Assembly: GCA_977017645.1 (NCBI GenBank)
Contig: OZ360227.1
Location: forward strand, 101,184,001-101,248,000
Direction of reading: 5' to 3'
Origin: Torpedo marmorata
Taxonomy: Eukaryota
Length of the DNA stretch: 64,000 bases
This document shows, piece after piece, positions 46-44,147 of this stretch. The notes under the pieces are model-generated. The model had not been told where the DNA came from. It worked only from the letters and a program-made list of their open reading frames with translations, and made no database searches. Positions within the stretch are counted from its first letter, which is position 1, and the number at the start of each line of letters is the position of its first letter. A program made the translations under genes and the position numbers.

Positions 46-3000
46 CCTGCAGAAAATGCCAGGTACTTCTCTGTGCTGATCATTTATTTTAAACAATGCT
101 CAAATAATTTGAATGAAAAAAAACGTAAAAGTGATTTTATTTCCCACTGCACCGGAAAAGCTGGTTGCAACATCATGAGAGAACCCATCCCTGCTGCTTT
201 ACTTGAGGTAAAGGCATTCAAAAATGTGGACAAGCTATCGTTCTTGTTGGTGCTACTGCTGCAGATGTTTCTTGCGCTACTGTTCCTCACTTCCAGAGCC
301 TCTTCCTCCTTCCCTGTACCTCTCTCTCCCCTTACTCCTTTTCCCTCCACTTGCCAACATTTTAACGTGTTACCATGTTCAGGGTTCCTGAACACGTGAG
401 TGTCACCATGTTCAGGAACTTGGAAGACCCTAGCTTAATGGCCAAACTTCGCTGGTGCAATCCTGACCCCATTTCAACATTGGACTCCTCAAAGAACCCA
501 GCAATGCAGTGCGGGTTTGTGGCCAAATCTACCGAGGGGTCTTACGCCAGGTGAGACCAGGCACAAAGTCAATGTCCAACCACCTGAACAGCTACATGTC
601 AAAAAATACACTTCAAGCAAATTACTTTCTTTAGAAGCAATTGAATTTAATTAAAAGATTTAAATTTTTTAAGTATACCAGTAACTTCAATTTGGTTCAA
701 GTTTGTTTTCTTTGAATCATTTTATTTTTATTTGTTCGATCTTTCATTATTCTTGAATGTCTCTGAACATCGTTCATGGAAGGTGTGACAGCTTGCTGAA
801 CCAGGGAGATTTGGTTAACCAGCTGTCGCTGATCATCCAGTATTTTTTGTGTGCAGGTTTTATTCCATTCAGCCCATCCGATGCCTCATTTATATTGTTG
901 GCCTCTTTATCACAAAGGGTTTTCCCACTGTGGATCAGGATGCCTACGTCCAACAAGTTTGAGTTGTTTGGTGTAATTAGTTTTGAGTTCAGAGTACAAA
1001 GAATGAAGTGGTTCACTGCTAGAGAAAATTGTAGACTATTGTGCTTCAAAACAACGGCACAAAATAATAGCATTTATTGCCTTCATTAATCCCATTGTCT
1101 TAAGTTCTAATTTATTTAATTTATCACCATAACTAAACAAATGGACTGGTTATTATTGGCGCTTTGAAATCTTGTGTTGGTTTTAAAAAATTTTTGGAAG
1201 ACTAGCAAGTTTTTCATCTGATGATGGAATTTAATGATCAAATAGCAATTTAAATTTAACTCTATTGATCTTACATAAGTGATTAAATACATTAAGAATG
1301 GCAATTGATTCTTTTAGATCCAAAGGTAAGAAATTCAAAAAACAAAGTGAAAAAATTGGATTTGGATGGTTAAAATGTAATTCTAGTATTGTATGTCAGA
1401 TAAGCATGATATTTTTTTCTTTCAGATATCACAAGTTAATTAAAAAGACTATTCACATCTCTGTCCAAGCATGAAAGTAGATAATAAAACACAAACTCCA
1501 TTTTTTACTGTCACTCCTTCCTATTTCATGAATTAAATGCCACGTGAATTCATGCATCTCTTATTTCAGTAGCTGCTCTTTTTCTGTCACATAAAACATT
1601 TGCTGGGCTCAGTGAAGGGAACAATCTCTCATTTTATTTCCTACTTTTTCTGTTTAAAGAAATATAACTTGTTTGCTTCCTTATATATTTGTTTTATAAA
1701 ATATGCAATGTCCTTTTTAATCCCTGACATTAGTCAGGATGCTCTTCTTGAAAACAGTTACAGGATGTTCCATTTTAAACTTCTGTTCAATTTTATTACC
1801 AAAGTGAATCTTTACAGCAGTATAAAATTAATGTGAAGTTACAGTGAGGAGCAGAGTATTCGACATGTTATTTGGTGTATTCCCAACACCAGGTTGGTAG
1901 TCTTAGCCATATCACAAGGCTCTGCTGTGTATTCTGTTACTCTCTTATCATCACATCTTTCTGTTGCATTTCACTCTTTCCAAAAAACATCTTAATAAAA
2001 TAACTTATTACAATGAAGTGCTCTTTACAGTGAACACCAAGGTAATATGGTCCATCACTTTATATTTTTGACTGTAGCAATTCTAATGAGAAACTACATG
2101 CAACCTGAAGAAACTGCTCAGATAGTTAAAATATATAGCAATACACTGGCATATACTTAATATAGAAGACACCTTTAATATATAAGAATGTTCCTGGATG
2201 CTCCTTTTATATGTTAGAAATATACCAAATCAAAGCATTTGTCCTTCCTGATGCTGAATGCATGCTCAGTTGTGTGAAGATAATAAATGGTGTTAGTTGT
2301 ATTGTTCAACTGCAGCTTGACCCTTTTCTCCTCTTGACTGACATCATTGTTTGTTTATCTGCATTCTTCCACTGGGAGACTGGGAATGCATGCACAAGTG
2401 CCTTTCTCAAAATGGACCATTCACACGATAGATGTACTATATTTGAGATGCCACTGAAATGGAACAGTCTGAAGTTTCTGCATGCTTCCTGAGCCAGTTT
2501 AGGCCCCAGTAATGGATGTTTCTCCATCGTGCAGGCATAGAACCCAAAAGCAAATGTGAGTCAATGAATCTTGGCCTTTACTCATCACTGTTGGGAAATC
2601 ATGTGTTCAGGCCATTGAATGTTTCATCAAGGAACAGAAGCATTCTTAGAACAGAATTCGTTGAAGAACAACTACAATGACTTGGAGGTAAGTTTTGAAA
2701 AGGTTTTTGAAGGTGAGTAAAAATGAAACAAGTTAGGTGGCTTTTGAAATAGTTCTAGAGGTTTGGAAACTGGTGACTCAGGGTTCCAACTCCAAAGTGG
2801 GTGTGGGCAGTACAAAAAAAACACAAAAACCATTTGAAGATTCAACTTACTGTTTGAAGTTGCTCAATCTTAGATGAGAGTTGTAAGAGCAGTTAAACAT
2901 ATCTTATTAAGACCCATTTAAATTCTCTGCAATATTTACATTACATTGCATGTGTTGAGGATTATTGGCTGCACAGAAGGCAAGATTCAAAGGTACAGAG

Positions 3001-4473
3001 AGGGCAAAACTAGTAGAGAGCCTTGTCTGATTAGTAGGAGAAGGGAAGCCTACTATCGTACAGGAGTGTGAATCAAAAATACAGTTTGTTGTTTTGATGA
3101 GGTACTCTCTTGCAGTGAATATCAGAATGATTTGACAAACATGAAGGAAGATGCCAGGGTTGAAGAAAGTACACTGCTCCCCTGATAAAATAAAATGGAA
3201 TTAATTTGTCACTGATATAGCATAGTGCTGATTTACATTACCTGTAGTTCAATAGGTCTGCACTCCTGGCTGTACAGTACAATCATTCTGTAATCTCAAG
3301 GATAGCTATATAATGTAGATTTAAATGATAGGGCTCAAATGATGCATAACATTCATTTTCATGCTTGCTGCATATCTCCAAGCACCCTTTCTTTTAACAG
3401 TGGAAAGGATCCTCTGAAAAAAATCATTAACACACAAATATACGGCAAACATATAATAGCATATTTTTCAAACTCATGCCATTTTAAACATTTTTATTAA
3501 AATAATAAAAAATTGTTCCCTTAAAGCAATAGAAAGGAATGCAGTAGATCTTCTTTATGATTACTTTCTGATACAAAAAGACCTCCAATGCAACACATTT
3601 TTATGGTTCCTTCGCTAACAGAAAATACACATAAAGTACATTGTTCATAACACATCCACTCCCTTCCAAACAACATGCTCTTTAATCCCAAAGATTTGCA
3701 ATGATGTGAGATTATATAGAATGAATAAATGTCCTTGGGTAACTTTAAATGTACAAGAAGACACAGAAAGGATTTGAAGTAATCTAATAGGTCAAGTGCT
3801 TCAGAAGAAATATGTTTCCAGATTTCTATGTGGTTACATTTTGCCTAATTTTACATGGAATCAATTAATTAATAATAATATTTTCACATTTATTGACAGA
3901 ATAGATAGACAAAGTAAAAATGAAGAAACTTCAACAGACATTTAGTTAAACATTAAGAAGGCAAATCTATGTCATTGAAACACCTTAATTACTTTACTAA
4001 CCAGTTTAAAAGAATTAACGTCATGCAACCTATGATTAACATTCATTAATTTCTTAATAATGAATGTAATGCCACAGTTAATAAAATAATACTTCGTATT
4101 TTTACATAATTCAAAAACCTTTTATATTAACTACAGAGACTTGTGGATTTAAACCAGCCAATCTTCTGTAACATCGATCACAGAGACAAACTGCTACTTA
4201 CCCTATTGTAATGTACGATATACAAAAATTATGGGAACTTCAATATATGATGACGAAAGAAGTAAAACTGTTGTCAGAAGTTTTGAATATTTGAAGTCAT
4301 AGGAGGATAACTGACAGAAGGATCATAGCCACTTTACCTAAAAAACTAGCTGGATTGGCATTACACTGAACAGGTACAGAACTCAACTGACCTCTTTCCC
4401 TGCTGTAACTGAAGCTTACAAAGCACCTGATATACTCCACATTTGCGAATATCATTGGCCAATTGGTGGTGCA

Positions 4474-5464: not shown

Positions 5465-6540
5465 TGCAATACACAAAAGTGCTGGAGAAACTCAGCAGGT
5501 CACACAGCATCCAGAGAGAAGTAAAAGGAATCAACCTTTCAGGCCTGAGCCCTTTGTCAAGAATGTGGAAAACCATGTAAACTCCTGAATTAAAAGGTGG
5601 TGGTGGGGGGAGGGGGGGGAGGGGGAGGGGGAGAGGAGAGGAGGAAGGGGAAGTGGGAGGACCTCAGGCTAACAGGTAAGAGGTTACAGATGGATACAGG
5701 TGGGATGGTAGATGAGAACGAAGCTAAGAAGTGATGGGGGAGAAGACAGAGCGCTAAGAAGAGGAACTCTCTGATAGCAGAAGGAAGGGAGGAGGGTTGG
5801 GAGCTGGAGGAAAGGAGAAAGAGGGAAAGAGAAAGACTGGGGAGAGGGTTAATGGAAATTGAAGGTCAATATTGATGCCGTTTGGTTGGAAATTGATGAG
5901 ACGAAATATAAGGTGTTGTTCCTCCAATTTGCAGGTGGCCTCAATTTGGCAGTACATGAGGACATGAACAGATATGTCGGTGTAGCAATGGTGTGTGGAA
6001 TTGAAATGGTTGGTTACTGGGAAGTCTTTGCTGTTGCAGTGGACAGAGCGAAGGTGCTCAATGAAACGCTCTACCAGTCTGTGTCCAGTCTTCCCGATGT
6101 AGAGGAGGCTGCATCAGGAACATTGGATGCAGTAAATGACCCCTACAGATTCACAAGTGAAGTGTTGTTTCACTTGAAAGGACGGTTTGGGGCCCTGAAG
6201 AGTGGTGAGGGAGGGGGTGTAGGTGCAGATGTCGCATTTCTTGCGGTCACAGGGGTAGGTACTAAGGGAGCAATAGGTAGGAAGGGATGAGTGGACAAGG
6301 GAGTCGCAGAGGGAGCGGTGAAAAGTGGAGAGGGGAGGGCAAGATATGTCTGGTGGTGGGATCACATTGTAGGTGGCAGAAATTGTGGAGAATAATATGT
6401 TGGATGCAAAGGTTGGTGAGGTGGTAGGTGAGAACAAGGGGAAAATGTAACAGAGTACCATGAGAACACAAAAAATGTAAGGAGGCAAATATCAAGAAGG
6501 AAGGCTCAACACGTGAAGCACCCCATGTCTGCGGCAGAAA
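5465..6540 (-). mobile_element. Penelope-like element, 3' part, degenerate
   Basis: Minus-strand PCDRKKCDICTYT...QGPKPSFQVKQHFTCESVGVIYCIQCS and CKLEEQHLIFRL...PNGINID; terminal repeat at 5465-5570. Confidence 0.85.
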
Positions 6541-15498: not shown

Positions 15499-16145
15499 AT
15501 TCAGATTTCAGATTTATTGTTTCAGATTTCAGATGTACATACGACATCACATAAAACCCTGAGATTCTTCTTCCTGCGGATGAGGTATAATTACCACTTA
15601 TTGGCAGTATAAAAAAAACAGACTCAATGTACACATGTAAACAAATAAAGAAATGTAAACAAACTGGCTGTGCAATACAGAGAAAGAAAAAAAAATCAAT
15701 AAAGTGCTAAATTAAGAGTCCTTAAATGATTGAGTTTATTGTTGAGGAGTCTGATGGTGGAGGGGTAGCAGCTTTCCCTGAACCTGATGGTGTGAGTCTT
15801 GTGGCACCTATACCTATTTCCTGATGGTAGCAATGAGAACGGAGCGTGTGCTGGGTGGTGTGGATCCTTGTTCATTGCTGCTCCTCTCCGATGGCAGCGT
15901 TCCCTGTAGATGTTCTCAATGGTGGGGAGGGTTTTGCCTGTGATGTCCTGGGCTGTGTCCACTACCTTTTGCAGGACTTTGCGCTCAGGGGTATTGGTGT
16001 CCCCATACCAGACCATGATGTAGCTGGTAAGCACACTTTCCACCACACATCTGTAGAAATTTTCCAGGGTTACCAATGTCATACCAAACCTCCACAAACT
16101 CCTGAGGAAGCAGAGGCGCTGACGTGCTTTCTTCACGATGCCATT
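15499..16145 (-). mobile_element. Rex1/Babar LINE, 3' part (interrupted by BEL element)
   Basis: IVKKARQRLCFLRSLWRFGM...FYRCVVESVLT; continues at 21624; collinear with the uninterrupted copy near 37750. Confidence 0.9.
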
Positions 16146-16680
16146 TGTAAGAGCCATAGGCTTGGTTACTTACCTTCATCGCGGCGTTCCGATGTATCCA
16201 GCGGGTTTCAGAGGAGTTACGGAGATTAGTAGGCTGTGCTAGGCCTATTGAGTAATCTGCGCATGCGCGGGAGTGCCGACGGGCGCATGCGCAGTAGGGA
16301 AGTGGCTGGAGCATGCGCGGTGGAGTATGCGCGGTGGACCATGCGCGTTAATCAGGGAAGAAGTATATAAGAATATGGCGACTTAGAGGAGGGTGAGTGA
16401 GATCGCCATAGCTTTCATTGACCGTTTAAAGGAAGTTATAAAGAATCGTTTTAAAGGAAGTTTAAAGACGTTTTAAAGAATTGTTATTAAACATCATTAT
16501 CAAGAATTGTTTATATTTCGTTAAAGAAGATATTTAAGTCTTTGAAGATTGCTACAAGTCATCGTGTGTAAATAAAGTTTTTTAACCTATTGGACTTGTT
16601 AGTAAATTAATTGAAACGCGTCATGAACAAGTGTCTCACCTAGCCTCCAAGTGACTATTTGTTGGATTGAAATCACTATA
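16146..16680 (+). repeat. 5' LTR of BEL element
   Basis: TGTAA...CTATA; TATATAA at 16364; AATAAA at 16571; ~18 substitutions versus the 3' LTR counted by eye, many at CpG. Confidence 0.95.
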
Positions 16681-17139
16681 TTTTAGTCAATGAAAGTTTA
16701 TTGTTTGGAACAGAAAATTGAAGGAAAGAAGATAGAATAAGCTCTCTGTGCTTTGGACTGATATTTAAAATAAGATGGTGGCCATTTTGGAAATGCCTCG
16801 AGTTAGGGGCAGTTTGTAATCCACATCCATCTGCCATGAGTATCAGCCAGAGAGGGATATAGAGCTTCAAATCTTATAGTGAAGTGTCCTACAAAAATAC
16901 GCTGGAGAAACCATTTCTCGAAAATCAGCGATATTATTGACGGATGCTGCGGTGGAAACTCGTTTGTGAATAGTAGCACATTACAGTCATCTGAAGTGGT
17001 AGGCATAAGTCTGTGGACTCCTTCTGTGTATCTTTGGCAAGTTTGAACACAGATTGGATTTGCTGCCGCAGTCCATTGGGGACTGTTGATTTGGCTAGTG
17101 TTGTGTATGCTAGAACGACGGTGGAACAAGACAAGTAAA

Positions 17140-17784
17140 ATGGCCGCAGCAGCCACTGATGTTGCTGCTGAGGAACAACGTGTTGAAGACATGAAGGTTG
17201 TGGAGCTCAAAGAAGAATTGAAGCGACTGAAACTAGATACAACTGGAAATAAAAAGGTTCTCATCACAAGACTGAAGCTGGCAAAGGAAGAAGAGGCTGC
17301 TTCGTTTGATGAACATGAAGACAGCAACGTGGAAATGGCGGAAAATGTGTCACCAAATGATGAAGAAAACGAAGAGGATGAAGATGCAAAGGATGTACAA
17401 TTCGAATTGGTGAAGGAGGTAAGTAAGAAGACAACATCTGACCTATAGGATGAAATACAAGCATGTGACAGTGTCTCAAATGTTGAAAGCAGGAGAAGCA
17501 AACTAAGTTCCGGTTCAAGCTCCAGAGTTTATCGTACTTCAAGTTCTGCATCGTCACGTACAAAGGTTGAAGTTGACTTGGCCACTCTTCTTGCGCAACA
17601 AAAAACACTTAAGGATAAACATATTTTAGAACGACAGGAGGAGCAGCTAAGGCAAAAGGAGGAGCAGCTAAAGCAGCAGCTAGAGCAGCAGCTAAGCCAA
17701 GAGAAGGAGCAGCTAAGGCAGAGAAAGGAGCAGCAGGATCTGGAAGCAAACATTACTATTGCCAGGGCAAAAAAAAGGTACTAG
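17140..17784 (+). pseudogene. Gag N-terminus: SAP domain plus BEL gag coiled coil (in-frame stop at 17446)
   Basis: MAAAAT...VEDMKVVELKEELKRLKLDTTGNKKVLITRLKLA, then in the same frame DSVSNVESRRSK...LLAQQKTLKDKHILERQEEQL as in fish BEL gag. Confidence 0.8.
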
Positions 17785-18114
17785 AAGGCTCAATGGTATC
17801 TGTTACTCGGAGTAAATTATCTAAAGTGTGCAATGATAAGAAGTTATATTTTAAAAAAGAGCCACAGGAAAAGAAACCAACCAAAAAGGTAGATATTTTA
17901 GTACCAAGGGTACAAGACTTGCAAATACAAGGACAAATCCTTCAAGATCATGTTGTTATCGAGTCACATGTACCAGTGGTAACATCCGAAGACAAAGCTG
18001 TGGCTTGGGTTCGGTCAAACGATGCAGCTCCCTTGTCATCTGAGTCAAGCATCAGAAATATGGGAGAAACTACACCAGTGAGGTTTCCAGATACATTACC
18101 TGTAACAAGAGGCG

Positions 18115-19110
18115 GTGAACAGAGCAATGTATTGTCATCCAAAGGAAAGAAAAAATGAAATTGCTGCATCATTGATTCAGTTACAGTCTCTCTCTTCTTT
18201 GCTTAAGAAAGAGATTCAAACTTTTGATGGTGATCCACTTCAGTACCAAGCGCTCATGAAATCTTTTAGACGCAATATTGAAAATAAATGTCAAGACCCT
18301 GATGAATGTCTTTATTATTTGGAAATGTTCACAAAGGGACATCCAAGAGAACTTGTAAAGAGTTGTCAACATATGTCCTCAGAAAGAGGATTAGACAGAG
18401 CTAAGTCTTTACTAGAACAACATTTTGGCAACAAGCATCGAATTGCTTTAGCTTATATGGATAAAGCTCTTAAATGGACATCAATAAAACAGAATGATGT
18501 AAAGGCTCTACAAGCATGTACTCTCTTTTTAAGAGGATGTTGTAATGCCATGGAAGATATCGATAATATTCGTGAGCTTGACGTGCCTGGTAATATGCGA
18601 ATCATCTTAGATAAATTACCTTACAAGTTGTGGGATAGATGGAGAAATTTGGCTTGTGATTTACAAGAAAATTACAGTCAAAGAGCTACCTTAAAGGATT
18701 TGGTAAATTTTCTTGAACGACAGGTGTACATTGAAACAGATCCAATATATGGAAATACCAGAGACAATTCAATGGGGAACAAAGATGTAAGGAAGTCAAA
18801 CTCACAGCCTAGTCCAAAATTGAAAATGAGTACTTTTGCTACTAATGTGTCAGTTATAAATAAAGAAAAAGATAAAGTAAATAAGGAAAAGGAAAGTTTG
18901 ACTAATGAGAAGAGTTGTTTGTTCTGTAAAGGTGTACATGCTTTGGAAATGTGTTTACGGTTGGAAAAGAAGGAACATAATGAGAAGATCGCTTTCTTAA
19001 AGGAAAATGGAGTGTAGTTTAGCTGTCTGTGTAAAGGGCACATCAGTAAAAACTGCGAGAAGCGAATTAACTGTAACATATGCAATTTGAAGCATCCTAG
19101 AATGTTGCAT
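18115..19110 (+). pseudogene. BEL/Pao gag core (DUF1759-like) with three Cys/His knuckles
   Basis: EIQTFDGDPLQY...LYYLEMFTKGHPRELVKSC...LLEQHFG; CLFCKGVHALEMC, (stop replaces C)FSCLCKGHISKNC, CNICNLKHPRMLH. Confidence 0.9.
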
Positions 19111-20832
19111 ATCCATCAAAGAAACAAGGAATTGGAAAAGGAGCAAACAGAAACAAAGGAAACATCAGAAAACAATGTTATAGCCTCGGTTCAGACAAGT
19201 GGTCTTACCGGGGCCGGTATGGATAACTGCAAACTTTCAATAGTGCCTGTACAAGTCAAGATTAAGAACGGGGATGCAACAGTACATACGTATGCATTTC
19301 TCGACTCAGGCAGCACTGAATCTTTTTGCACGGTGGGACTAATGCACAAACTTAATATTCAAGGAAGAAGGTCAAGAATTATGTTGAAACCCATGGGACA
19401 AGAAAAGGTTGTTGAAACCAGCATTGTTTCAGGCTTAGAGGTTGCTGGATTGTATGACAAAAAATTTTGTGATCTTCCAAGTTTATATACTCAGAAGATT
19501 ATGCCTGTGCACGAAGGAAACATTCCGCATCAAAATGATTTCCATCATTTGTCTTATCTGTGGAAGGTTTATTTACCTGAAGTTAATTCTGAGATAGAAA
19601 TGCTGATTGGTTCAGATGTACCAAAGGTTCTGGAACCACCAGAAGTAATACAGAGTAGAGAGAATTGTCCTTACGCTGTTAGAACCAAGCTTGGTTGGCC
19701 AATCAATGGACCATTGGAAAGAAATAATGATATTGCACAGGAACAGTTAGTGATAAATGTTAACAGAATTTCGGTTGTGAAATTTGATGAGTTAAGGGAA
19801 GAGCAAAAGACTGTGAATAAGAAAGTCACTTTTGAAGAAAAGAAAACAGATCAATGTGAAAATAAATCAAAGGTATTTAAAACAACATTGAAGGAATTAT
19901 TTTCATCAGAAATGGATGAAAATGAAGTATTAGAAGATGTTGCAAATAATACTAGTGATTATTCATGTGTAATTGAATCAGAGGCAGGAATAAAACAAGT
20001 GACTGAGAACAAATTTGAAAGTAAATTTTGTAGTTCGGAGGTTACAGCAGACAAAGTCAATGAAGAAATGTCGCAATGTGATGTAAAACTGGAGAACACA
20101 GAAAATTGTGCTGATGGAATAAAGAAGAATGTGAATGATAATTTAATGCAATTGAATTCAGAGAACAAAATGTTGAAAGGGGAACTGGAAATATTGGATA
20201 ATCATGAAAACAGTAAACAGAAAGATTTCATTGTAAATAAAATTCGCAAAGTCAGAAAGCGGAAGAAAAGAATAACTGCTGAAGAAATAAATACAGTTAT
20301 TGAAGAAAGAGATTCAACATTATCAAGATGTAAAAGGTTGGAGGAAGAGATTCATTTTTTGAAAGAGATCAAGTTATTGGTTAATAACACAAAACAGCTG
20401 ACTATAGAAAACAATCAAGAATGTAAATTGAAGGTTCAGCTGTTAACAATGCAGAAAGAAAGTGATATTGCATTGCAGCAATGTAACAAGCAAGATGAAG
20501 AAATTCAAATATTTCAAGTTTACCATAGCAGGGTTGACAACAAAAGTATCAATGTATCACATGATATTTTCACTTCAGATCAAGTTATTAATTTCTCAGA
20601 AGGAACTGAGACTGAATTGAAAGTTGCAAAATTGGATTTGGAATTGCAGGAAAAGGCAATAGAAACCAGAGTGGTTAAAGAGACTCGTTTATTAAAATCG
20701 AGAGGATCAGATAAATATTCAAATTCTGGTTATGAAAGTTCAAATTATTCATATGAGAAACGACATGTTGAAGAAGTACCTTGTGTTAAATTCAAAAGGA
20801 AAAACTATCTATTTTGTCTGAGGAAGATTTGA
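19087..20832 (+). pseudogene. BEL aspartic protease fused to a non-pol tail containing a MIPOL1-like coiled coil
   Basis: SIVPVQV..TYAFLDSGSTESFC, MLIGSDVP, AVRTKLGWPINGP; then ITAEEINTVIEERDSTLSRCKRLEEEI where RT should be. Confidence 0.85.
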
Positions 20833-21088
20833 GGTTTACTGGTCGACGTTCTAACTCAAAGATTCTGGAGATAAAATAACTTTGATAAATACAAACTGAC
20901 TTTATTTTGTTATTTTGTATACTACACAGGTTACAGACTTTTACTGATCCAGAGTTATGGTAAACTCTGTTCTTATGAAGAAAGAAGATTTGTATATTGT
21001 TTGAATGTTATATGGTTATTGTTATTTGTAATTGATTGTATAATTATTATTTAAGACATTGCGTCTCGTTATAATAATTAGGGGCCGG

Positions 21089-21623
21089 TGTAAAAGCCAT
21101 AGGCTTGGTTACTTACCTTCATCGTGGCGTTCCGATGTATCCAGCGGGTTTCGGAGGAGTTACGGAGATTAGTGGGCTGTGCTAGGCCTATTGAGTACTC
21201 TACGCATGTGCGGGAGTGCCGACGGGCGCATGCACAGTGGGGAAGTGGCTGGAGCATGCGCGGTGGAGTATGCGCGGTGGAGCATGCGCGTTAATCAGGG
21301 AAGAAGTATATAAGAATATGGCGACTTAGAGGAGGGTGAGTGAGATCGCCATAGCTTTCATTGACCATTTAAAGGAAGTTATAAAGAATCATTTTAAAGG
21401 AAGTTTAAAGACGTTTTAAAGAATCGTTATTAAACATCGTTATCAAGAATTGTTTATATTTCGTTAAAGAAGATATTTAAGTCATTGAAGATTGCTACAA
21501 GTCATCGTGTGTAAATAAAGTTTTTGAACCTATTGGACTTGTTAGTAAATTAATTGAAATGCGTCATGAACAAGTGTCTCACCTAGCCTCCAAGTGACTA
21601 TTTGTTGGATTGAAGTCACTATA
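21089..21623 (+). repeat. 3' LTR of BEL element
   Basis: Direct repeat of 16146-16680, followed immediately by TSD CCATT. Confidence 0.95.
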
Positions 21624-22196
21624 CCATTAGTGTGTTGGGTCCTGGAAAGATCCTCCGAGATAGTGACTCCCAAGAACTTAAATTTGCTCACCTTCTCCAT
21701 CTCTTATCCCCCAATGATCACTGGTTCGTATACCTCTGGTTTTCCCTTCCTGAAATCAATAATCAGCTCCTTGGTTTTGGTGACACTGAGTGCAAGGTTG
21801 TTGTTGGAGCACCATTCAGCCAAGTTTTCAATCTCCCTCCTGTATGCTGACTCATCGTCCCTTATTAAGCAACCCACTACTGTGGTATCGTCAGTGAATT
21901 TGTAGATGGTGTTGTTGTCGTACCAAGCCACACAGTCATAGGTGTAAAGTGAGTAGAGCAGAGGGCTAAGAACTTAGTCCTGTGGTTCTCCGGTACTGAT
22001 GGAGATTGTGGGGGAGATGTAATATCAATCCTCTGATTGTGGTCTGGAGGTGAGGAAATCAAGGATCCAATTACACAGTGGGCTTTTGAGTCCTAGGTCT
22101 TGGAGTTTGCTGATCAATTTTGAGGGGATGATGGTGTTAAATGCTGAACTGTAGTCGATAAAGAGCATCCTGGTGTATGCATCTTTGCTTTCCAGG
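21624..22196 (-). mobile_element. Rex1/Babar LINE, RT part (continuation of 15499-16145)
   Basis: [29 protein letters not shown]...ESAYRREIENLAEWC. Confidence 0.9.
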
Positions 22197-29290: not shown

Positions 29291-32200
29291 CGTGTCAAGG
29301 GATGAACATTTCACAACCAGGTTATCACTTGACGGGGTGCTTGTGTAGGCCAGAGTCAGACTACACAGACACACAGGTGAAAATAGGCACATGATGATGA
29401 GCCACTCAAACTACTTGGCCAGAGTGAGAATTAAGTCAGAAATTTGACGACAGAAGACAATGGCTCCACTAATAGTTGGTGATCATTTCTGCTTATCCAA
29501 TGCTATATATTAGAGTGGGATCTGAGCAGTCCGAGAGAAAGGGGACAGTGTGCAGAATGACCTGATCCTGTGCTATCAGATGATGGTGGAAGTGCAGTGC
29601 TCCAGGTAATGTTGCATGTACAGGAAGGAATCTATTGGAGACAATTCTCTGTCTCTTGCTGGAAAAGGAGGAAGCAAACATGGTTCCAGCCAAATGGATA
29701 ACAGGCAAGTGAATATGGCAGAAGAAGGAGTAGTCAACCATGTTTTAAGGCTGCAGACAGCTGAAGAATGATGAGGAAGGAGTCACCATCTTTCATAAGA
29801 GCCATTTTAGTACTGCAGCAGGTAGGATTTTGCAGGTCTCAAGGGCGTAAGGGTTACGGTATGCTTTTCTGAGGAGGGTTCCTGCTGGTAGAGGGGCATG
29901 CGGGGGCAAAAGGGGAAGTTTAGTAGCTGGCAGTTTGTGAAAATTATCCATAGAGAGCAGATGGCTACCCTCATGGAAAATGGAGGTTGGACATAGCATA
30001 AAGAATTATAGGAGACAAATTATTGACCATTCAATAGAAAGGGTGCTGAGTAAATATCAGTCTTTGTTGCAATGAATTCCACATGTGCATGTGCATATTG
30101 AATGGGACAAGGGAGAACGGTTTAAGGAGATAGTTGGTTCTGGAAGACATAATGTGCAATCTGTTATTAGAAGTATACTTCGTTTCTCTTTCTGTATTTC
30201 TTCCAGACCTTTTCAATTACTTGCCTTTCTTTGTTGTTGAGGTTCCCCCATTGAAATTAAAACCTCTGCTTTGCCTGGCTTTAAGTTGATGAACAAAAAG
30301 GCATTCTAATTTATCAAGAAGCAGAAAACACAGATGTTAAGTTTCTGAAACAAAGCCAGAAACTGCTGAAAACCCTTAGCTGAGAGGAACATGGGTTCTG
30401 ATGAAATGTCCATGGTTAGGAAGGTTTACACCCTTCCCCTCTCCACTGCAGCTGCCTGGCCCATTGAAGTTTCCAGCATTTTCTGTTTTTATTATACATT
30501 CATTTATGCTTGAAGGCTCTTGGATTTCTGTACATCTTACATAAAATGTGGTAAACAATGACTATTAAAATACAATCCAGTCGGTGGAGGAGGAATGGCC
30601 TCACCCACAGGCCTATGAATCGTAACACTCCTCCATCTCCCACCTAAGCTACAAAAGCAAGCACTTTAGGTGGTTCCTGCACTCAGTATCCAGTCCTGCT
30701 TGTTTCTGCCTCAGCTACATTGTTGCAAAATATGTCACATTCTTTACGGCAGAGGCGTCCATCAAGTCTTATTGCTTTGGCATACACTGCTCGCTTACAA
30801 CCATCATTCTTGAGTGTCAATTGCTGTTTAACAAGAAAGACAGATGAGACTTTCAAAGCAAAATGTATCTATAACTGTTTGCTGATATATACATTAGATC
30901 TCATTTAGTCCATTATATGGTTTTTCAAAAGGACAACATTACCCGTGGTGATTTATCTCCTACCTTCACATGTAACCCTTTCATTACAAGCTTACTCCGT
31001 AGCTTTTTAGGGGAGCAAAGAATTTCCATTCCATTACAATAATGGCATTAGTGTCTAATGAAAATGTTATGTTCCATTAATGTGAAGTGTTGATAAAAGA
31101 AAATAATAGGGCAAAGTTACCGTTTTATTGGTGTTGCTCAATTTGTGACTGCAATAAAAAAGCAGTACTTGACAAATCCTTTCCTGCACATCATCCTGTG
31201 TATAGAACCAGGTGATGTTCGGATATTTTGTGGGTAGAGGTTTCAATGCAATTTTAATGCATCTCCTTGCTGACCATTCCTCTTTTCTAAACAACATTTC
31301 ACAAAGCTGCAACAGATATTTACAGCAGTTTGGCAGCCCAGGCAAATGATTGGTATTGAAGTGTTAAATATGTAGACTGGCTTCTAATTTTTAGTATTGG
31401 AATATCTTTCTTGTAATGAGGAACATGGGTTTGAGAGTGCCATGTTGACGATGCAACATTCTGTCAGATCAAAAGAAAAGTGCAATGAGGAAAGTTATTT
31501 GATCCATCTTAGCTCATCTATTCAAAAAGAACTTGCAGGCACCCCCGTCTCAGCATCCATAAATGATTCCAGGATCTTTGTTTCCGCTATTAGACATTCA
31601 TTCCCTATGTTGACTGCTGTGTGAAGAACTTCCTGATGTAAGCTTGCCTTTTACCAATTTAAATCAATTTTCCTTGGAACTTAATCTCAGGCTGTCTTAA
31701 ATAAATGACAACATTTCTGTCCTTTCCATTTGAAGACTAACCTTGCTTTATGACGTACAGCTGGAAAAAGAAAGATATGTTAAAAATGCTTTCTAAAGAT
31801 AACATAATTTGGGTGTTTGAATATTCGAGTGTGTTTCCTTTAGGAGCTAATAGTAGCTCAATAAATCATAGATTCCCATCTTTGCTATCTGGTCATTGCT
31901 GCGTTCATTGTTTAGAAGTTTGATTACAACAACTTTCATCAATAAATTTCATTTCAGTGGCAATTGAGATGAAATAGCGAAGTAGGTGTTAGATGTTACA
32001 CAGGTGAGGTAGGATGTTTTAATAATGTGAGGTCAGAACATGATTTAAATCAGCTAAAATACTTGGGTTACACATAGTCTAAGATGAACCAGTTGACCTT
32101 GTTTCTACTCTTCACTGCTGTCCAGGAAATCAATTTGAAAATTGCAAGCATGTGCATGCCTGATGCAGGCTGAGCTGCAGTGGTTGGAATCCTTTAGCAA

Positions 32201-32401
32201 CAGGCTAACAGTTATTCGAGGAACATTCATTGCACAGGGTCAGATGTGAAATGTGCCTCCAGAACATGGCACTAATTGCTGTAATGTATCATAACATTGT
32301 TCCTTTCAAATGGTTTGGATGAAGGAGAAAGTTTGTCTCGACTAGATTCAAAACCTGAAGTATAAGAAAAACTGAACTGGAACAAAAATGTGTTTGGTTT
32401 A

Positions 32402-32635
32402 TGTGGTAAACCACTGTATGTGTGTTGTGGAGCTGGGGATAGGTTTGGACATGCCCTGCTGACTGTCCCGGTGACCCCTCCCACAATCCCCTTGAATAAA
32501 GGCCATTGTGCCACAACTCCTCCCCTCAGTCCGGGACAGATCAGCAGCTCGAATGTAGCTCCATTCTATAACCAATAAAAGCCTTTCAGTTCAATACAAC
32601 TTCCAGTCTTTTGGGAGTCATTGATAGGTGTATCA
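32402..32635 (+). mobile_element. Short solo LTR (234 bp)
   Basis: TG...CA ends; 5-bp TSD GTTTA (32397-32401, 32636-32640); TATA-like GAATAAA and AATAAA near 32574. Confidence 0.75.
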
Positions 32636-32744
32636 GTTTACAAATTAATCTGAATCTGATTCCATTCACAAGTTCATCACTGTCACCCAAAGGATTACTA
32701 ATGATCTTCAATGTAAATTCCGCAAAAACGATGCCAGGATTTCT

Positions 32745-32866
32745 ACTGACTACTCACTGCTATCAGATTTCTGAATGGACAATGAACCACAGACACTATC
32801 TCCACTTTCTCTTTTTTTATTTTTGTGACATGTTCATGACAATAAATTCTGATTCTGATTCTGACT
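32745..32866 (+). mobile_element. Rex1-type LINE tail
   Basis: gctatcagatttctgaatggacaatgaacc...catgacaataaattctgattctgattctga, similar to 12310-12492. Confidence 0.65.
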
Positions 32867-33481
32867 ACAACTAAATAGCACAGGTCCAATATCCGCACTT
32901 CACCAGTAGGTGAAGCGCAGAACAACCTCATCCATACAGAAAGCATAAAATGACCATCCTTAAAGCCCATCAAAATCCACAGACTTTGGCATTTCATAAG
33001 CTCAGCCCACTGCAAAGTGAATACAACACAACCTTACAACTTTCCACTACTGGATCACTGAGGACAGAACACTGGCTTATTTGGTGCTGATTACTGGATC
33101 ACAGGGCACTACAATCTTAGCCAAAGCACCTTGCGAGCTATCTGAAGTCTTCAAAGAGGGAAAGGCTTGAGACATAATGGCCAAGTGGCCAAATTCAACA
33201 AAACCTTCTCCTTGAACTGACATGTTCACTGATAAAACTCTCAAGCAAATTTGGTCAAAGCAGCCAGTTTTCAATAATTGAGAGTTGAAGAAACAGGTGG
33301 AAAGATAGAGTGGAGGCCCTCAAGACTGCACATATAAAGTTATGATGCTGTGAACAACTGTCTAAGCTTAAACCAAAAACTACATCTAAACTTAAAACTA
33401 GAATGTTTTCCACAAGGTATGAACTCGGGTGGCAATACCAATTCATTGCCCATCCCCAATTGCTTTTAAGAGAAGAGCAGT

Positions 33482-36400
33482 TGACTGAACCCTAGAGAAA
33501 AAGATTATTCATTTTATTCTTTTAGACATGATCTAGGATAGATTTATTTTTATTATCATCACAGGTTCAAGATAGAATAACGCAAGCATCCTATAAAGCG
33601 AGAGTAATTTCTGATCATTCACCTTTGTTATTGTCTTGTATAATTCCGGAAAAAGAAAAAACTATATATAATTGGAGATTTGATTCGTCGTTATTAAAAA
33701 GGAAAGATTTTTGTGAATATATAAGAAGAGAAATTCAGGAATTTTTACGAATAAATGTTAATTCTATTAATGATAAATTTATAGTGTGGGAAGCTTTAAA
33801 AGCTTACTTAAGGGGTCTAATAATGTTATTCAGTTAAAATTAAGAAAGATTATCTTAAAGAATCAGAAAATCTGGAGAAGGAAATTGAACTTATGGAGAA
33901 AGACTTACAGAGAAATAGATCAATTCAAAAAAGAAATAGTTTAATAGGGAAGAAATTACATTATAATTTATTACAAACAGAAAGAATGGAAAAATTAATT
34001 GAGAAAACTAAACAAAGATATTATGAATTAGGAGAAAGAGCACATAAGGTTTTGGCATGGCAATTAAAAAAAGAACAAGTTTCTAAAACTATAAATGCTA
34101 TAAGGAAGAAAAATACTGGAGAAATAACTTATAAACCTCAAGAGATAAATGAATCTTTTAAAGATTATTATCAGAATTTATATAAATCGCAGATTGATCA
34201 AGATGATTCTAAAATTAATAGATTCTTATCTAAAATTGTATTACCTAAATTGAATATTCGGAGTAGAGACTCTTTAGATTTGCCTTTCACAATGAGGGAA
34301 GTTAGTGAAGTTTTTTCCTCGTTGAAGAGTGGTAAATCTCCGGGTGATGATGGGTTTTCATCAGAATTTTATAAAGAATTTAAAGATTTATTAATACCTC
34401 CATATATGGAGGTATTAGATCAAATTACTGAAACTCATTCATTACCGAAAACATTTTTAAATGCTATAATTACAGTTATAACAAAGAAGGATAGAGATGT
34501 ATTAAAAACTGAATCGTATAGACCTATTTCATTATTAAATGTAGATTATAAAATAATGGCAAAATTTTTAGCAAATAGAATGGCTAAATATTTGCCAGAT
34601 TTGATACATACAGATCAAGCTGGTTTTATTAAAAATAGATATTCAAAGGATAATATAACTAGATTAATTAGTTTAATTAGTTTACATAAAAAGAAACAAG
34701 ATTTACAATTAGTTGTAACATGAGACGCTGAAAAGGCTATTGATAGATTAGAATGGAATTTTTTATTTAAGGTATTAGAAAAATTTGGTTTTGGAAATAC
34801 ATTTATAAATTGGATTAAAACTATATATAAAGAACCATCAGCTAAAGTAATCACAAATGGACAAATATCGCCAAAATTTTCTTTGACACGTTCTACGAGA
34901 CAGGGATGTCCCCTGTCACCAGCTTTATTTGTTTTGGCGATAGAACCATTGGCTGAATTAGTTAGAAAAGATCCTAAGATAGTGGGTATTAAAGTTGGTA
35001 CGGAAGAACATAAGATTAGTTTGTTTGCAGATGATGTATTGATATATATGACAAAATCTATTATATCACTTCAACAACTATCTATTATATTAAGAGAATA
35101 TGGTGAAATATCTGGATATAAAATTAATTCTGATAAAAGTGAAATAATGGCTTTATCTCAGGGTGATTATACTAGATGTAAAGAAATTACACAATTTAAA
35201 TGGGCTAAAGAAGGAATTAAATATTTGGGGGTCAAGTTTGATACAAAATTGGAAAATTTATATAAATTAAATTATTTACCATTATTTGTGAAAATAAAGA
35301 AAGATTTAGAGAACTGGAAAGATTTACCCATAACTTTAATGGGAAGGGTAAATTGTATTAAAATGAATATTTTTCCAAGAGTGCAGTATCTTTTTCAATC
35401 AATTCCTTAAAAAAATTTTTAAGATTTAAATTTTATCGTTAGGAAATTTTTATAGAAAGGAAAGTTAGCAAGAGTAAGTATGGAAAAGTTAACTGGAATT
35501 ATGAGATGGGTGGATTGTAACTTCCTAATTTTCAAAATTATTATAAAGCAGCTCAACTGAAATTTGTTAATGAATTTTTTGATTTAACTAAATCTTCTGC
35601 TTGGATTAAAATAGAATTAAATAATATAGGAGAAGATCTTAAAGAAGAAATTATTTATAAATGGGATTCTAAATTAATATTATTAAAAAAGAAAAATTCA
35701 CCGATTATTAAACATTTGTTAGAAATATGGGGTAAGACGGATAAAGAGAGAGGTGGAAGAGGATTAATTTCTTCAAATATGCCATTATATCAAAATGGAC
35801 TTATATCATTTACTGTTAATAATCAGTTACTTAAAATTTGGTTTCAAAAAGGTATTAAGAAGATAAATGATTGTTTTGAAGCTGGAAAATTTATTATGTT
35901 TCAAAGAATGAAAGATAAATTTAATATACCAGATAATACATTTTTAGCTTATTATCAAGTTAAAGCTTTTTTGACTGAGAAATTAGGTTATGCTTTGATT
36001 TTACCAAGACAAAATGAATTAGAATTATTAGTTACTAATGGAGATGTTAATAAATTTATTTCTCAAATGTATAAATTGTTTCAGAGGATAATGCCTAAAA
36101 TAGGATTGCATAAATCAAGATTAAAATGGGAATTAGATTTAAATGTAAATATAGATGAAAATCACTGGAAAGATTTATGTAAGTTAAGTATGACGAAGAT
36201 TATTAATGTTAGATATAGACTAGTACAATATAATTTTTTTCATCAATTATATTTAACACCAAAAAAATTAAAGAAATTTAATTCGACATTATCAGGACTA
36301 TGTTTTAGATGCAATAATGAGGAAGGTTCTTTTGTTCATTCTACATGGTTTTGTCCAAAGATTCAAGATTTTTGGTTGAAAGTTAAAAAATTTTTAGATA

Positions 36401-36966
36401 AAGTATTTAATATTGTATTTCCAATGTTATTTTTATTTGGAGATATTAAAAAATTTAGTATTAAAAAGAAATTAAATATGTTTCAAGTAGAATTTTTACG
36501 AATTGCTTTAGCTGTTTCGAAAAAAATGCATTGCTATTACTTGGAAATCTGATTTAGATTTAGGATTAGAAAGATGGCATGCAGAGCTTCGTTCGTGTAT
36601 ACCACTGGAAAAAATTACTTATAATTTACGTAATAAATATCATTTCTTCTTGAAAATTTGGAGCCCATATATGAGAGCTGTGGGTTTAAGGATTTGAAGA
36701 TCTCTGGATATCGGATCTACTGGCACATTTGACCTCTATAATAGAATTAGTTTATAGATGGTATTCCCCTTATTCTATCTTTTTCTTTCTTTTTTTTTTC
36801 TATTTTTACTTTTATTTTAATTTTACTAGTTTAGTGGGGATGGGGGGGTTGGGGAGAGGAGGGAGGGTGGGGGGGTGAAAATGTAACACATGTATTTTGA
36901 TAATTTTATATTTTATTTTATGTATTTTGTGATTTAAAAGTTTAAATAAAATAATAAATTAAAAAA
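33482..36966 (+). mobile_element. 5'-truncated L1-clade LINE, disrupted ORF2
   Basis: Endonuclease end SDHSPL; KSPGDDG; YRPISLLNVDYK; RQGCPLSP; LFADD; CFRC..GSFVHSTWFC; polyA; TSD AAGAGAAGAGCAGT (33468-33481, 36967-36980) at a TTTT/AA site. Confidence 0.95.
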
Positions 36967-37129
36967 AAGAGAAGAGCAGTAAATGGCCTTCTTGAAAGTC
37001 TACAGAGATGGGGTGAAGGGTTTCCACAGTGTTTTCGACAGCAATGAAAAAGGATCAGCAATATATTTCCAAGTTAGGTTTGTGCATGACTTGAAGGTGA
37101 TAATGTTCCAAAGCATCTGCTGCCCATCT

Positions 37130-39650
37130 CAAAGTTCAAAATTCAGATTTACTGTCATATTAAAAACATGACATCACAGACAACGCTGAGATTCTTTTTC
37201 CTGCAGGCCAGGCAGAGTTTCTACTTATGGGTAGCGCAAAAGACTGCACTCAAGAAAAGATATGTATACAAAAGAGAGAAATGTAAACAAACTGTGCAAT
37301 TCAGAAAATAAATATTCAATAATAAATAATGCGCAAAGTAAGAGTCCTTAAATGAGTTTCTGATTGAGTTTATTGTTGAGGAGTCTGATGGTGGAGGGGT
37401 AGCAACTGTTCCTGAACCTGGTGGTGGGAGTCTTGTCGCACCTATACCAGCAGCAAGAACAGAACAAGTCCTGGGTGGTGTGGATCCTTGATGATTGCTG
37501 GTGGTCTACGACGGCAACGTTCCATGTAAATTTTCTCGATGGTTGGGAGCGTTTTGCTTGTGACATACTGGGCTGTGTCCACTATCTTTTGCAGGGCTTT
37601 CCGGTCTGAGATATTGGTGTCCCCATACCAGGCTATGATGCAGGTGGTCACTACACTATCCACCACACCTCTGTAGAAGTTTGCGAAGGTTTTCGATGTC
37701 ATACCAAACCTCCGCAAACTCCTGAGGAAGTAGAGGTGCTGACGTGCTTTCTTCACGATGGACATTTGTGTGTTGGGTCCGGGAAAGAGTCCTCCAAGAT
37801 AGTGACTCCCAGGAATTTAAATTTGCTCACCCTCTCCACCTCTAATACTCCAATCATAACTGCATATTACACCTCTGTGTTTCCCTTCCTAAAGTCCACA
37901 ATCAGCTCCTTGGCCTTGCTGACATTAAGTGCGAGGTTGTTGTTAGTGCACCATTCAGCCAAGTTTTCAATCTCCCTCCTGTATGCTGACTCATCACCCC
38001 CTTTTATACAACCCACTAGCATGGTATTGTCAGCAAACGTATCTGGTGTTGTTGTCATACCGAGCAACACAGACATAGGTGTAAAGCGAGTAGAGAAGGG
38101 TTCTAAGAACACAACCCTGTGGTGCTCCGGTAATGATTGAGATTGTGGAGATGTTCTTACCAATCCTCACTGATTGTGGTCTGGAGGTGAGGAAATCCAG
38201 GATCCAATTACATAGTGGGGTACTGAGGCCCAGGTTTTGGAGTTTGCTGATCAGTTTTGAGGGGATGGTGGTGTTGAATGCCGAACTGTAGTCATTAAAG
38301 AGCATCCTGATGTATGCGTCTTTGCTGTCCAGGTGTTCCAGTGTTTTGTGTAGAGCCACTGAGATGGCATCTGCCATAGAACTGTTGCTGCAGTCAGACA
38401 AGAGCTGATATGCTTCAACATCAGCCTCTTAAAACCCTTCAACACAGTGGATGTGAGTGCTACTGGTCGATTGTCGTTTAAGCAGGTTACCACACTCTTA
38501 TATAAATTTTTAAAATTTAGACATACAGCACAGTAACAGGCCATTTCGGCCCACAAGTCCGTGCCGCCCACTTTACATCTACACCCCCGGTACATTTCAA
38601 ATGGTGGGAGGAAACCGGAGCCCCTGGGGAAAACCCACGCAGACACGGGGAGAACGTACAAACTCCTTACAGACAGCGCGGGATTCGAACCCCCGTCCTG
38701 ATCGCTGGTGCTGTAAAGGCATTGCGCTAACTGCTACGCCAATGCTGGGCACAGGTAGGATTGAGGCCTGTATGAAACAGGTATGTACCACACACTGCTG
38801 GAGTGAGATGTTGAAGATATCCATGAATATATTGGCAAGTTGGTCAGCACGGGTTTTCAATACTCGGCCGGGTACTCCGACCGGACCGGATGCTTTCCTT
38901 GGATTAGCTCTCCTGAAGGCAGCCCGCACGTCACCCTTGGATACTGACAGTAGAGGATCATGGGGGTGTGCAGTGGTTCTTCCTTGTTCTGGTGGTCAAA
39001 TCGGGCGTAGTAGGCATGGAGTTCATCTGGGAGTGAAGCTTTGCTGTCTCCCACTGCACCAGATTTGGTTTTGTAGCAGGTTATGTCATTTAGGTCCTGC
39101 CACAGCTGTCGGGTATACTTCGCTTTTTCCATCCTCGTCTGGAATCTCCACATCGCTCGGGAGATGGCTTTCCATAGGTTGTACCTGTCCCTTGTGTAGT
39201 ATTCTGGATCTCCAGACTTAAATGCCTGTGATCTGGCTCTCAGCAGGTTCTGGATTTCATTGTTCATCCAGGGCTTCTGGTTGGGGAAAACCCTGAATGA
39301 TTTGGTGGGAGCACACTTGTCCACAGCTGTTTTGATAAAGTCCATAGCAGCCTTGGTGTAATCATTCAGATCCTCAGCTGAGTTCTTGAACAGCACCAAA
39401 TTCACTGACTCGAGGCACTCCTGTAACCATTCTTCAGCCTCCCGCGACCACCTTCTGGCTGTCCTGATCTCTGGAGCCTCTCTTTTTAGGTTCTGTCTGT
39501 ATGACAGAGGAGAAGGAGCACAGCCAAGTGATCTGACTTGCCAAAATGCGGTCTCAGGAAAGAACGGTAGGCCTTCCTTATCTTGGTGTAGCAGTGATCA
39601 AGTGTGCTGGGTCCTCTGGTTCCACAGGTTACGTGCTGGTGAAAGACGAT
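37130..39650 (-). mobile_element. Rex1/Babar LINE (endonuclease end, RT, 3' end), frameshifted
   Basis: [61 protein letters not shown]. Confidence 0.92.
38503..38743 (-). mobile_element. tRNA-derived V-SINE (HE1-like) inserted in Rex1
   Basis: A-box TGGCGTAGCAGTTAG, B-box GGTTCGAATCC, V-domain GAGTTTGTACGTTCTCCCCGTGTCTGCGTGGGTTT..CTCCGGTTTCCTCCCA, CR1-like tail. Confidence 0.88.
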
Positions 39651-39746
39651 GAAGGAAGATAAGGTCCTCGGAGATGCTACTGAAGAAGTGAGGATGAGGA
39701 CTACTTTGCATCTTGAAACTGGTAGGCTGTGCACTGGTGGTGTTGG

Positions 39747-40641
39747 GTGAAACACAAAAGTCTACAGACGCTGTGATTATAGTAAAAACAGAAATGCTGA
39801 AGGAACTCAGCAGATCTCGCAGTGTCCATAGGTGGAAAAGATATATAACCGACATTTCGGGCCTGAGCCCTTCTTCAAATGTGGGTGCACACCTCCTCCC
39901 TCACCACCATTCAGGGCCCCAAACAGTCCTTCCAAGTGAAGCAACACTTGTGAATCTGCAGGGGTCATCTACTGCATCCAGTACTCCCGTTGTGGTCTCC
40001 TCTACATCAGAAAGACTGGACAAAGACTGGGAGATCGCTTCGTGGAGCACCTCAGTTCTGTCTGCTGCAATAGCAGGCATCTTTCAGTGGCCACCCATTT
40101 CAATTCCCCACCCCATTCCTTGCCGACATATCTGTCCATGCACTGCCAGACTGAGACAACAAATTGGAGGAATATCACCTCATATTCCGTCTACGCACCC
40201 TCCAACTGGATGGCATTAATATCGACTTTTCCGGTTTCCGTTAACCTGTCGTCCCCCCCCCCCTCATCTATCCCTATGTCTCCTTTCCTCTTACTCTGTC
40301 TCTCTCTCTCTCTCTTGCCTTTTCCCTCTGTCTCCTTTCCCCCAGCTCTGCATTCACAGAGCTAAACCCCCTCCCCCAATAAATTCTCACCTTTCCTTTC
40401 TCCTGTCCTCCTATCCACATCCAATTAACACCTTTTGTCTGTTGGTCTATACTCCTCCCCCTGCCCTTTCATTTAATTCTGGTGCCTGCCTGCTATTTAC
40501 TGAAACCTTGAAGAAGGGCTCAGGGCCAAAACATCGGTTGTATATCTTTACCTCCTATAGACGCTGCGCGACCTGCTGAGTTCCTCCAACATTTCTGTAT
40601 TTTTACCTATATCACAGCGTCTGCAGACTTTCATGTTTCAC
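39747..40641 (+). mobile_element. Truncated Penelope with inverted 5' terminal repeat
   Basis: 39747-39878 is an inverted copy of 40508-40641; the middle encodes a GIY-YIG fragment (GVIYCIQYSRCGLLYI). Confidence 0.85.
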
Positions 40642-43600: not shown

Positions 43601-44147
43601 TTAGTGCTAGTTTGAGAAGTCTCAGTGCCACACAATGACTGCTCTATCCATGGAATTTCCTCTTCCGTCATAAGGAAATAGCTAAAGTCACACGCAACTA
43701 ATCTATTCTTAAGGCCATTCTGTTAACTAAAATGGCCATTTGATCTCATGCTGGTCTGTCTGTGGGGAATCATTTTCTGGTTACAGCTGCAATGTCCTGA
43801 GGCTGACAGCAAGGAAGATTCCTCGTGCTCCCTTGAGACACAAAAAGTGAACCAGAAAATCTGTAAAACATTTAAATTTACCAGTAATCGTGAAATGTCA
43901 TGTGAACTCAACACATTACCTCAGCTTTGCAAACTGATTGAACAAGTGCCTCCAGTTCATCGGATGGCATTAACATGGAGTTCTCCAGTTTCCGTTAAAC
44001 CAGACCCTCCCCCTTCTACTTCTCCCCATCGCCTTTCCCCAGCTCTGTCTTTCTCTCTCTCTCTCTCTCTTCCCTTTTCCCTCTGTCTCCTTTCACAGAG
44101 CTAAAATTAATTCTCACCTTTCCTCTTATCATATCCAATTAACATCT

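Follow-up and report, generated by a model that had tools for sequence, protein, structure and literature searches.

The genome of the electric ray Torpedo marmorata contains a BEL/Pao long terminal repeat (LTR) retrotransposon in which reverse transcriptase (RT), RNase H and integrase have given way, with the reading frame kept, to spliced sequence from three genes of the host, those of BRCA1, MIPOL1 and Elongin A. Within this cargo, the end of one MIPOL1 exon is fused exactly to the start of another that lies six exons upstream in the host gene. It is probable that this non-autonomous element copied its MIPOL1 piece from what was likely a circular RNA (circRNA), moves with the likely help of an RT-bearing relative, and retains the three pieces chiefly as an open-frame spacer.

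Structure of the element

The element spans positions 16146-21623 of the window, the term used here for the whole 64,000-nucleotide stretch of DNA that was analysed. Its parts, all on the plus strand and in window coordinates, are as follows.

16141..16145, +, 5ʹ target-site duplication CCATT (sequence)
16146..16680, +, 5ʹ LTR, TG...TA, 535 bp (LTR pair alignment)
17140..19218, +, gag with SAP domain, DUF1759 and cysteine/histidine knuckles (Pfam, sequence)
19219..19801, +, aspartic protease region and first pol codons (D-S-G at 19303; weak match to Pfam PF13650, E 0.19)
19802..20222, +, spliced BRCA1 piece, shortened and diverged (colinear with four host exons in the old form)
20223..20528, +, MIPOL1 exons F (part), G and H, without introns (host-gene alignment, protein search)
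20528..20529, +, back-splice-type joint of exon H donor end to exon B acceptor start, in frame (host-gene comparison)
20529..20672, +, parts of MIPOL1 exons B and C (host-gene comparison)
20673..20863, +, Elongin A remnant (colinear with five host exons in the old form)
20864..21079, +, integrase-end remnant and 3ʹ untranslated region (comparison with RT-bearing and old copies)
21080..21088, +, polypurine tract (read directly from the sequence)
21089..21623, +, 3ʹ LTR (LTR pair alignment)
21624..21628, +, 3ʹ target-site duplication CCATT (sequence)

Like members of the BEL/Pao group (Belpaoviridae), the element has paired LTRs, a polypurine tract, a 5-bp target duplication (likewise found at copy L175 and at a copy on contig C40) and a DUF1759-type gag that shares a single frame with a protease, the SAP and DUF1759 matches exceeding the Pfam cut-off and the protease match being weak. 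The LTRs agree at 516 of 534 aligned bases with no gap, and the flanks outside the element, when rejoined, form a single stretch that is presumably LINE-like. Unlike that group, it carries host pieces where RT, RNase H and integrase should be; none of these three domains is present in it, whereas relatives 90-96% alike in gag-protease have a pol with RT, RNase H/Peptidase_A17 and integrase. The protease region is 90% like that of one RT-bearing BEL copy, L240. A further difference is that the LTRs of the young form end in TA. No TGG-type primer-binding site was recognised behind the 5ʹ LTR: the sequence there (16681-16700) lacks an initial TGG, as does that of the old copy L175. No tRNA gene was detected within the 64-kb window. 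Having no RT, RNase H or integrase, the element is classed as a non-autonomous derivative of BEL/Pao rather than an autonomous member, and the marks of a LINE-made processed pseudogene (an mRNA 3ʹ end with poly(A), colinear exons and no LTRs) do not describe it. Elsewhere in the window lie broken reverse-transcriptase frames (33824-36552 and 44111-46530), which we take to belong to non-LTR elements.

The window copy is damaged by two stops and three frameshifts. Its gag is interrupted by stops at 17446-48 and 19015-17 and by frameshifts near 17769 and 18140, and the Elongin A remnant is frameshifted near 20803. What remains is a 604-codon open frame that includes the cysteine/histidine knuckles, the aspartic protease motif and the approximately 100 uninterrupted MIPOL1-like codons (20227-20526) reported in the preliminary description, whose translation is indeed free of stops. 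That description had placed these codons in frame behind the BEL protease; the frame holds, and the BRCA1 piece stands in between. Its coordinates end 2 nt before the joint of exons H and B (H|B) and omit MIPOL1 positions 20529-20672 as well as the BRCA1 and Elongin A pieces.

The MIPOL1 piece and its permuted exons

The identification of the peptide as MIPOL1-like is borne out by protein search, in which the best among the matches listed was MIPOL1 of Narcine bancroftii (E 9.9e-38, 74%). Among the 120 of 142 matches that were listed, all bear the precomputed Pfam accessions PF27918 and PF27921, and all are named MIPOL1 or uninformatively, except for one odd label. Because the matches are specific to MIPOL1, this is not a generic coiled-coil resemblance, the outcome that would have told against the identification. 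The local Pfam search of the element matched no MIPOL1 model, and the PDB search returned no MIPOL1 relative. A single-sequence structure model predicts two helices overall, the first of them long, separated by a linker; residues 22-108 are helical.

The host MIPOL1 gene lies on contig C40, and its exons are labelled A to I here by their place in the Narcine protein; exons B to H have AG/GT borders. Comparison with this gene shows that the stretch crosses exon junctions, comprising exons G and H in full and a portion of exon F, with a nucleotide identity of about 87%, and that host introns of 29 kb and 78 kb are missing from it. In pairwise alignment, a second MIPOL1 match downstream of the first corresponds to an upstream part of the host protein, so that the order in the element is F(part)-G-H|B(part)-C(part), and the permuted order aligns with a score of 639 versus 458 for the linear one. 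The proposal that the sequence was captured from spliced mRNA therefore stands as regards spliced RNA and fails as regards an ordinary linear mRNA, since the exon order is F-G-H|B-C(-D). The second MIPOL1 piece (20529-20672) contains an 81-nt in-frame deletion bounded by two TCAGAA repeats.

The H|B joint is exact. Host exon H ends in TACTACAG followed by gt, host exon B begins CAGGGC after taatag, and the element fuses the two at 20528/20529. An older form of the element, found by searching the host genome with exon B and with Narcine MIPOL1, carries 587 of the 780 nt that make up exons B to H, mostly at 94-97% identity to the host. At 58 old-form loci, chosen as closest to the host and including some duplicate fetches, 36 match the end of H and the start of B over 22 nt, and the remaining 22 differ by point changes only. 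The MIPOL1 sequence in the copies examined is confined to exons B-H, with none from exon A or I in any. As expected of a circRNA-derived retrocopy, there is thus an exact non-colinear joint of a donor to an upstream acceptor, together with circle-internal exons only. Among the public sequence runs listed, none is recorded as RNA. Three runs, consisting of contigs, contain the family across its length, and in one of them exon H continues into exon B sequence; old element copies give the same joint.

Being a back-splice joint, H|B indicates that the template was most likely a circular RNA, on this sequence evidence one of 780 nt. That length is divisible by 3 and stop-free in frame through two laps, so the putative circle would have an endless frame. 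Introns of 50 and 62 kb flank exons B-H, and long flanking introns are usual for back-spliced exons. A search for inverted repeats flanking the circle gave nothing notable within 5 kb, and no more than for other exon pairs.

Because less than one lap was captured (587 of 780 nt), trans-splicing of two MIPOL1 pre-mRNAs or an ancestral, since lost, tandem duplication of B-H would yield the same sequence, and the circle itself is deduced from DNA. Such an origin is nonetheless doubtful. The present host gene has single exons B and C within the 400 kb examined; between exons H and I it has no second exon B, and the sole match to exon C there is inside a copy of the element. A tandem repeat of B-H type is absent from all seven listed vertebrate MIPOL1 proteins that were aligned, and the long flanking introns also speak for the circle. 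That RT jumped by chance within or between linear MIPOL1 mRNAs is very improbable: the element made many such jumps, three nucleotides (AG|C) are common to both exon borders on the linear mRNA, and a switch point close to an exon junction is mentioned in PMC5131818, but just 9 of 17,039 possible backward joints with at least three shared bases pair an exon end with an exon start, and the remaining switch points of the cargo lie within exons.

BRCA1, Elongin A and the switch points

The stretch before MIPOL1 derives from BRCA1 (11 of 12 matches so named, best E 1.5e-70) and represents four host exons in normal order, the host gene lying on contig C61. The stretch after it derives from Elongin A (Pfam above cut-off, PDB match E 7.5e-37) and represents five host exons in normal order from the gene on C41; a second, more distant Elongin A-like gene, at G000:C25:175318134-175337048, is not the source of the captured piece. 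Since capture, BRCA1 has been trimmed to about 58% and Elongin A to about 26%, while MIPOL1 F-G-H has been kept almost whole. The Narcine BRCA1 model (P0126) has a first stretch of about 185 residues unlike the RING start of Pristis BRCA1, and RING Pfam matches are missing from it; these residues presumably resemble retrotransposon gag, and the start of the model is possibly a gene-model error.

The points at which the element passes into and out of the three genes recur unchanged across old copies and fall inside exons. Microhomology amounts to 9 nt at the pol|BRCA1 switch point, 6 nt at the Elongin A|integrase end and 5 nt where protease meets BRCA1 in the young form, but only to 2-4 nt at the BRCA1|MIPOL1 joint. 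The MIPOL1|Elongin A joint contains about 13 nt of uncertain derivation. An RT-deleted copy (L245 / L217), from which the RT core was lost in frame, provides the sequence to the left of the pol|BRCA1 switch point. In the copies inspected, the frame is kept across each of the first three joints and across H|B. An expectation that the whole cargo would be in frame with the native pol stop was abandoned, the Elongin A|integrase joint being in frame in just 1 of 49 copies. A search for capture intermediates in which only one or two of the host genes are represented gave none that were clear among 60 loci, L205 and L221 looking like later deletions, and the BRCA1 and MIPOL1 rows of the comparison with L240 were spurious alignments and were left out. 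No chimeric protein was found in other species among 8 matches of 595-1896 aa (7,998 candidates scored), which is weak evidence.

Copy number and age

A 19-letter pattern across the H|B joint is matched exactly at 5,554 places in the genome, against 0 for a control, and this number is a floor because the pattern misses the youngest variants. Four joint-bearing copies in the 590 kb fetched for host genes extrapolate to about 42,000 copies (95% range 11,000-108,000), and a protein search of the genome gave 32,863 first-look candidates, 150 of which were scored; copy-number estimates reach 30,000-40,000. The long Elongin A piece yielded only 136 matches among 178 candidates, which indicates that the old three-gene form is rare and that expansion took place in the shortened form.

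LTR mismatch is approximately 5-9% in six old copies, 3.4% in the window copy and 0.3% in two young copies. The old element has 11 residues in common with the host and Narcine as against other cartilaginous fishes, and it is without the changes found only in the host or only in Narcine. Capture is therefore placed within the electric-ray lineage, near or soon after the split of the host from Narcine. A one-residue deletion apparently common with Narcine, which had suggested transfer, was rejected: the element is without a Q, Narcine is without an N, and copy L105 is undeleted.

Several individual copies have features of their own. L105, an old copy, contains an inserted 378-codon transposase-like frame (2111-3247), which we take to be pogo/Tigger-like. 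At G000:C42:9563886-9564965, a 405-nt part of the MIPOL1 arc is tandemly repeated within a 459-codon open frame. The host MIPOL1 gene (G000:C40:64288001-64688000) itself contains four joint-bearing copies, and one very young copy with an unbroken frame lies within it about 0.8 kb upstream of exon E, in the same orientation as the gene. Its intron C-D also holds about 40 kb of purine-rich simple repeat (G000:C40 about 64544000-64585000).

RT-bearing relatives

Close relatives of the element encode Peptidase_A17 and integrase. Across leader, gag and protease, ten of ten long-frame RT-bearing copies that were fetched are 89-96% like the youngest cargo copy. The open frames of these copies (L315-L324) measure 1,635-2,134 codons, and the two LTRs of each agree at 95-100%; the BEL family appears, from these sequences, to have been active recently. 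In trees, the old copies with cargo cluster with old RT-bearing ones, and the young copies with cargo with a different RT-bearing lineage, to which the young cargo was joined through the 5-nt microhomology at the protease end. The ten long-frame copies nest inside the cargo clade and are placed differently on the gag and protease trees. This conflict is a sign of recombination, and the nesting in differing places suggests that the backbone was probably exchanged repeatedly.

Gag and protease are under purifying selection (P 1.2e-4). A tree whose RT-bearing copies were chosen near L240 fitted the idea that this proves use of the element's own Gag; the nested long-frame copies undercut it, and the selection is not creditable to the element because RT-bearing copies nest inside its clade. 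The cargo is a different matter, for the RT-bearing partners do not have it and it cannot be borrowed from them; its open frame is therefore the element's own.

A sibling RT-bearing lineage has a piece of cytoplasmic isoleucyl-tRNA synthetase in frame behind RNase H, recognised by Pfam and by a PDB match (E 1.3e-111) in L233 (4112-6067, minus) and L238 (5105-6310, plus). Judged from the sequence, this fusion is an independent host capture by the same family.

Selection on the cargo frame

The preliminary description had read the open frame as a hint of selection at the level of the element. This is supported as regards avoidance of stops and frameshifts, and finds no support in the amino acids, which change neutrally in the MIPOL1 arc. 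Among 165 fixed cargo substitutions, there are 0 stop columns, against a random expectation of 7-8% per change (P about 3e-6, assuming independence). All eight net length changes keep the frame; the eight consist of seven between an old copy and the youngest form (an adjacent pair counted as one, and one value taken from L177) plus the switch at the protease end, and the corresponding P of 1.5e-4 is optimistic because deletions between same-phase repeats may favour in-frame outcomes. In 20 copies picked by position, stops account for 3 of 284 shared versus 47 of 873 private changes (P 0.001), and a stop is never the commonest codon in any column; the individual copies decay neutrally. One natural copy retains an unbroken frame of 1,339 codons through all parts, with LTRs that match at 623 of 625 bases.

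The MIPOL1 residues themselves behave differently. The dN/dS of the arc is 0.7-1.5, with wide confidence intervals (0.36-2.1), and 36 changed residues were observed versus 35.7 expected under neutrality. Synonymous to nonsynonymous counts in the 20 position-picked copies are 6/25 for shared and 21/88 for private changes (P 1.0). With 0 stops in 165 fixed substitutions and eight of eight length changes in frame despite neutral residues, selection therefore acts on the open frame and not clearly on the MIPOL1 protein.

A reading in which the cargo protein matters supposes that the MIPOL1 coiled coil is a dimerising or particle-binding tail of Gag-protease that stands in for the lost RT-integrase, with helicity alone constrained. 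This would account for F-G-H remaining nearly undeleted while its neighbours shrank, and it is in keeping with retained helix propensity (P 0.033), with 0 prolines gained versus 2.7 expected and with the one long, confident helix that the model predicts; HIV-1 offers a parallel, as RT-RT contact is reported to promote protease activation there (PMC11998509). Set against it, the changed residues, the BLOSUM score and the loss of hydrophobic residues all agree with the neutral null, the helix result is 1 of 15 tests and fails correction, and the frame is preserved equally well through the BRCA1 piece, which has no likeness to MIPOL1. A structural role for the coiled coil is consequently an unlikely explanation of the open frame. 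A fuller version, in which a circRNA with an endless frame was reverse-transcribed in a BEL particle, its permuted coiled coil was co-opted as the Gag-protease tail and the rider came to outnumber its helper and to occupy a few per cent of the 6.2-Gb genome, is likewise improbable; if true, a protein domain of a selfish element would have been born from a circRNA.

The spread by drift of a few lucky master copies, with no selection on the frame, is largely refuted: the neutral decay of individual copies and a basal young set partly chosen for long frames speak in its favour, but the absence of any column with a stop as its commonest codon, the substitution and length-change results, and RT-bearing partners that have no cargo with which to refresh the element's own leave it very little room.

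A model for capture and spread

In the favoured explanation, host RNAs, one of them circular, would have been co-packaged in the particle of the element, and the RT of a helper would have switched templates so that pieces of BRCA1, MIPOL1 and Elongin A entered it. The switch points, the parent element, the RT-deleted intermediate and the graded copies, all in one genome, point to such template switching in LTR particles. An RT-bearing relative would then mobilise the element in trans, and the gag-protease backbone would repeatedly be swapped with RT-bearing copies.

The cargo would be kept as an open-frame spacer and not for any function of MIPOL1. A stop right behind the protease is estimated to about double the 3ʹ untranslated region, from about 0.85 to 1.9 kb, and a 3ʹ untranslated region lengthened by an early stop invites nonsense-mediated decay. 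If the rest of the explanation holds, protection of the genomic RNA from decay by the open frame is somewhat favoured, and it is preferred to a role for the coiled coil.

Comparison with known systems

Acutely transforming retroviruses are replication-defective and helper-dependent, with spliced host sequence fused in frame to gag, and in them the host protein is the selected function. The element resembles these gag-onc viruses in its defectiveness, its apparent dependence on a helper and its in-frame spliced host fusion, and differs from them in the neutrality of its amino-acid change and in showing no envelope gene.

LTR-mediated retrocopies are a closer parallel. The main text of PMC5131818 describes, among others, a two-gene case in Drosophila (CG4799_CG11924_r) in the Pao element BATUMI and maize Bs1, which contains three genes; the word 'circular' is absent from that main text. 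The element shares with such retrocopies the intronless, partial host sequence in a discontinuous LTR element without poly(A), microsimilarity at switch points (here at three joints of 9, 6 and 5 nt), several parent genes, common switch points and non-autonomous spread. Unlike Bs1, which is given 1-5 copies in PMC5131818, it has at least 5,554 copies and is still young; and whereas the older animal retrocopies described there are mostly broken (14 of 21), its frame has been kept through 10-15% divergence.

The second parallel is circRNA-derived. PMC4897178 describes 33 mouse circRFWD2 pseudogene copies with LTR-enriched flanks, leaves their mechanism open and calls circRNA retrotransposition mysterious. 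As with those copies, there is a non-colinear joint, circle-resident exons only, no poly(A), an association with LTRs and multiplication. The arc described here differs in being part of an element's coding frame, between mapped switch points and beside two more genes, and in its more than hundredfold greater copy number; the parent circRNA is known for circRFWD2 (PMC4897178) and deduced for MIPOL1.

LTR capture of mRNA and circRNA-derived retrocopies have thus each been published, and no report combining both was found. Likewise, a search mainly of openly accessible main texts found no published account of the element or of circMIPOL1; supplements may list cases. What is unusual about the element is the likely circular template, the three in-frame host pieces, the copy number and the continued activity.

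Significance

If about 33,000 copies are near full-length, a rough assumption, the family may make up about 3% of the 6.2-Gb genome. BRCA1, MIPOL1 and Elongin A look-alikes by the thousands will confound gene annotation, read mapping and circRNA calling in these rays. With thousands of dated copies and a cargo that helpers cannot refresh, the element offers a natural experiment on frame retention in selfish RNAs. It would also preserve, in fossil form, one particular back-splicing event of a cartilaginous fish.
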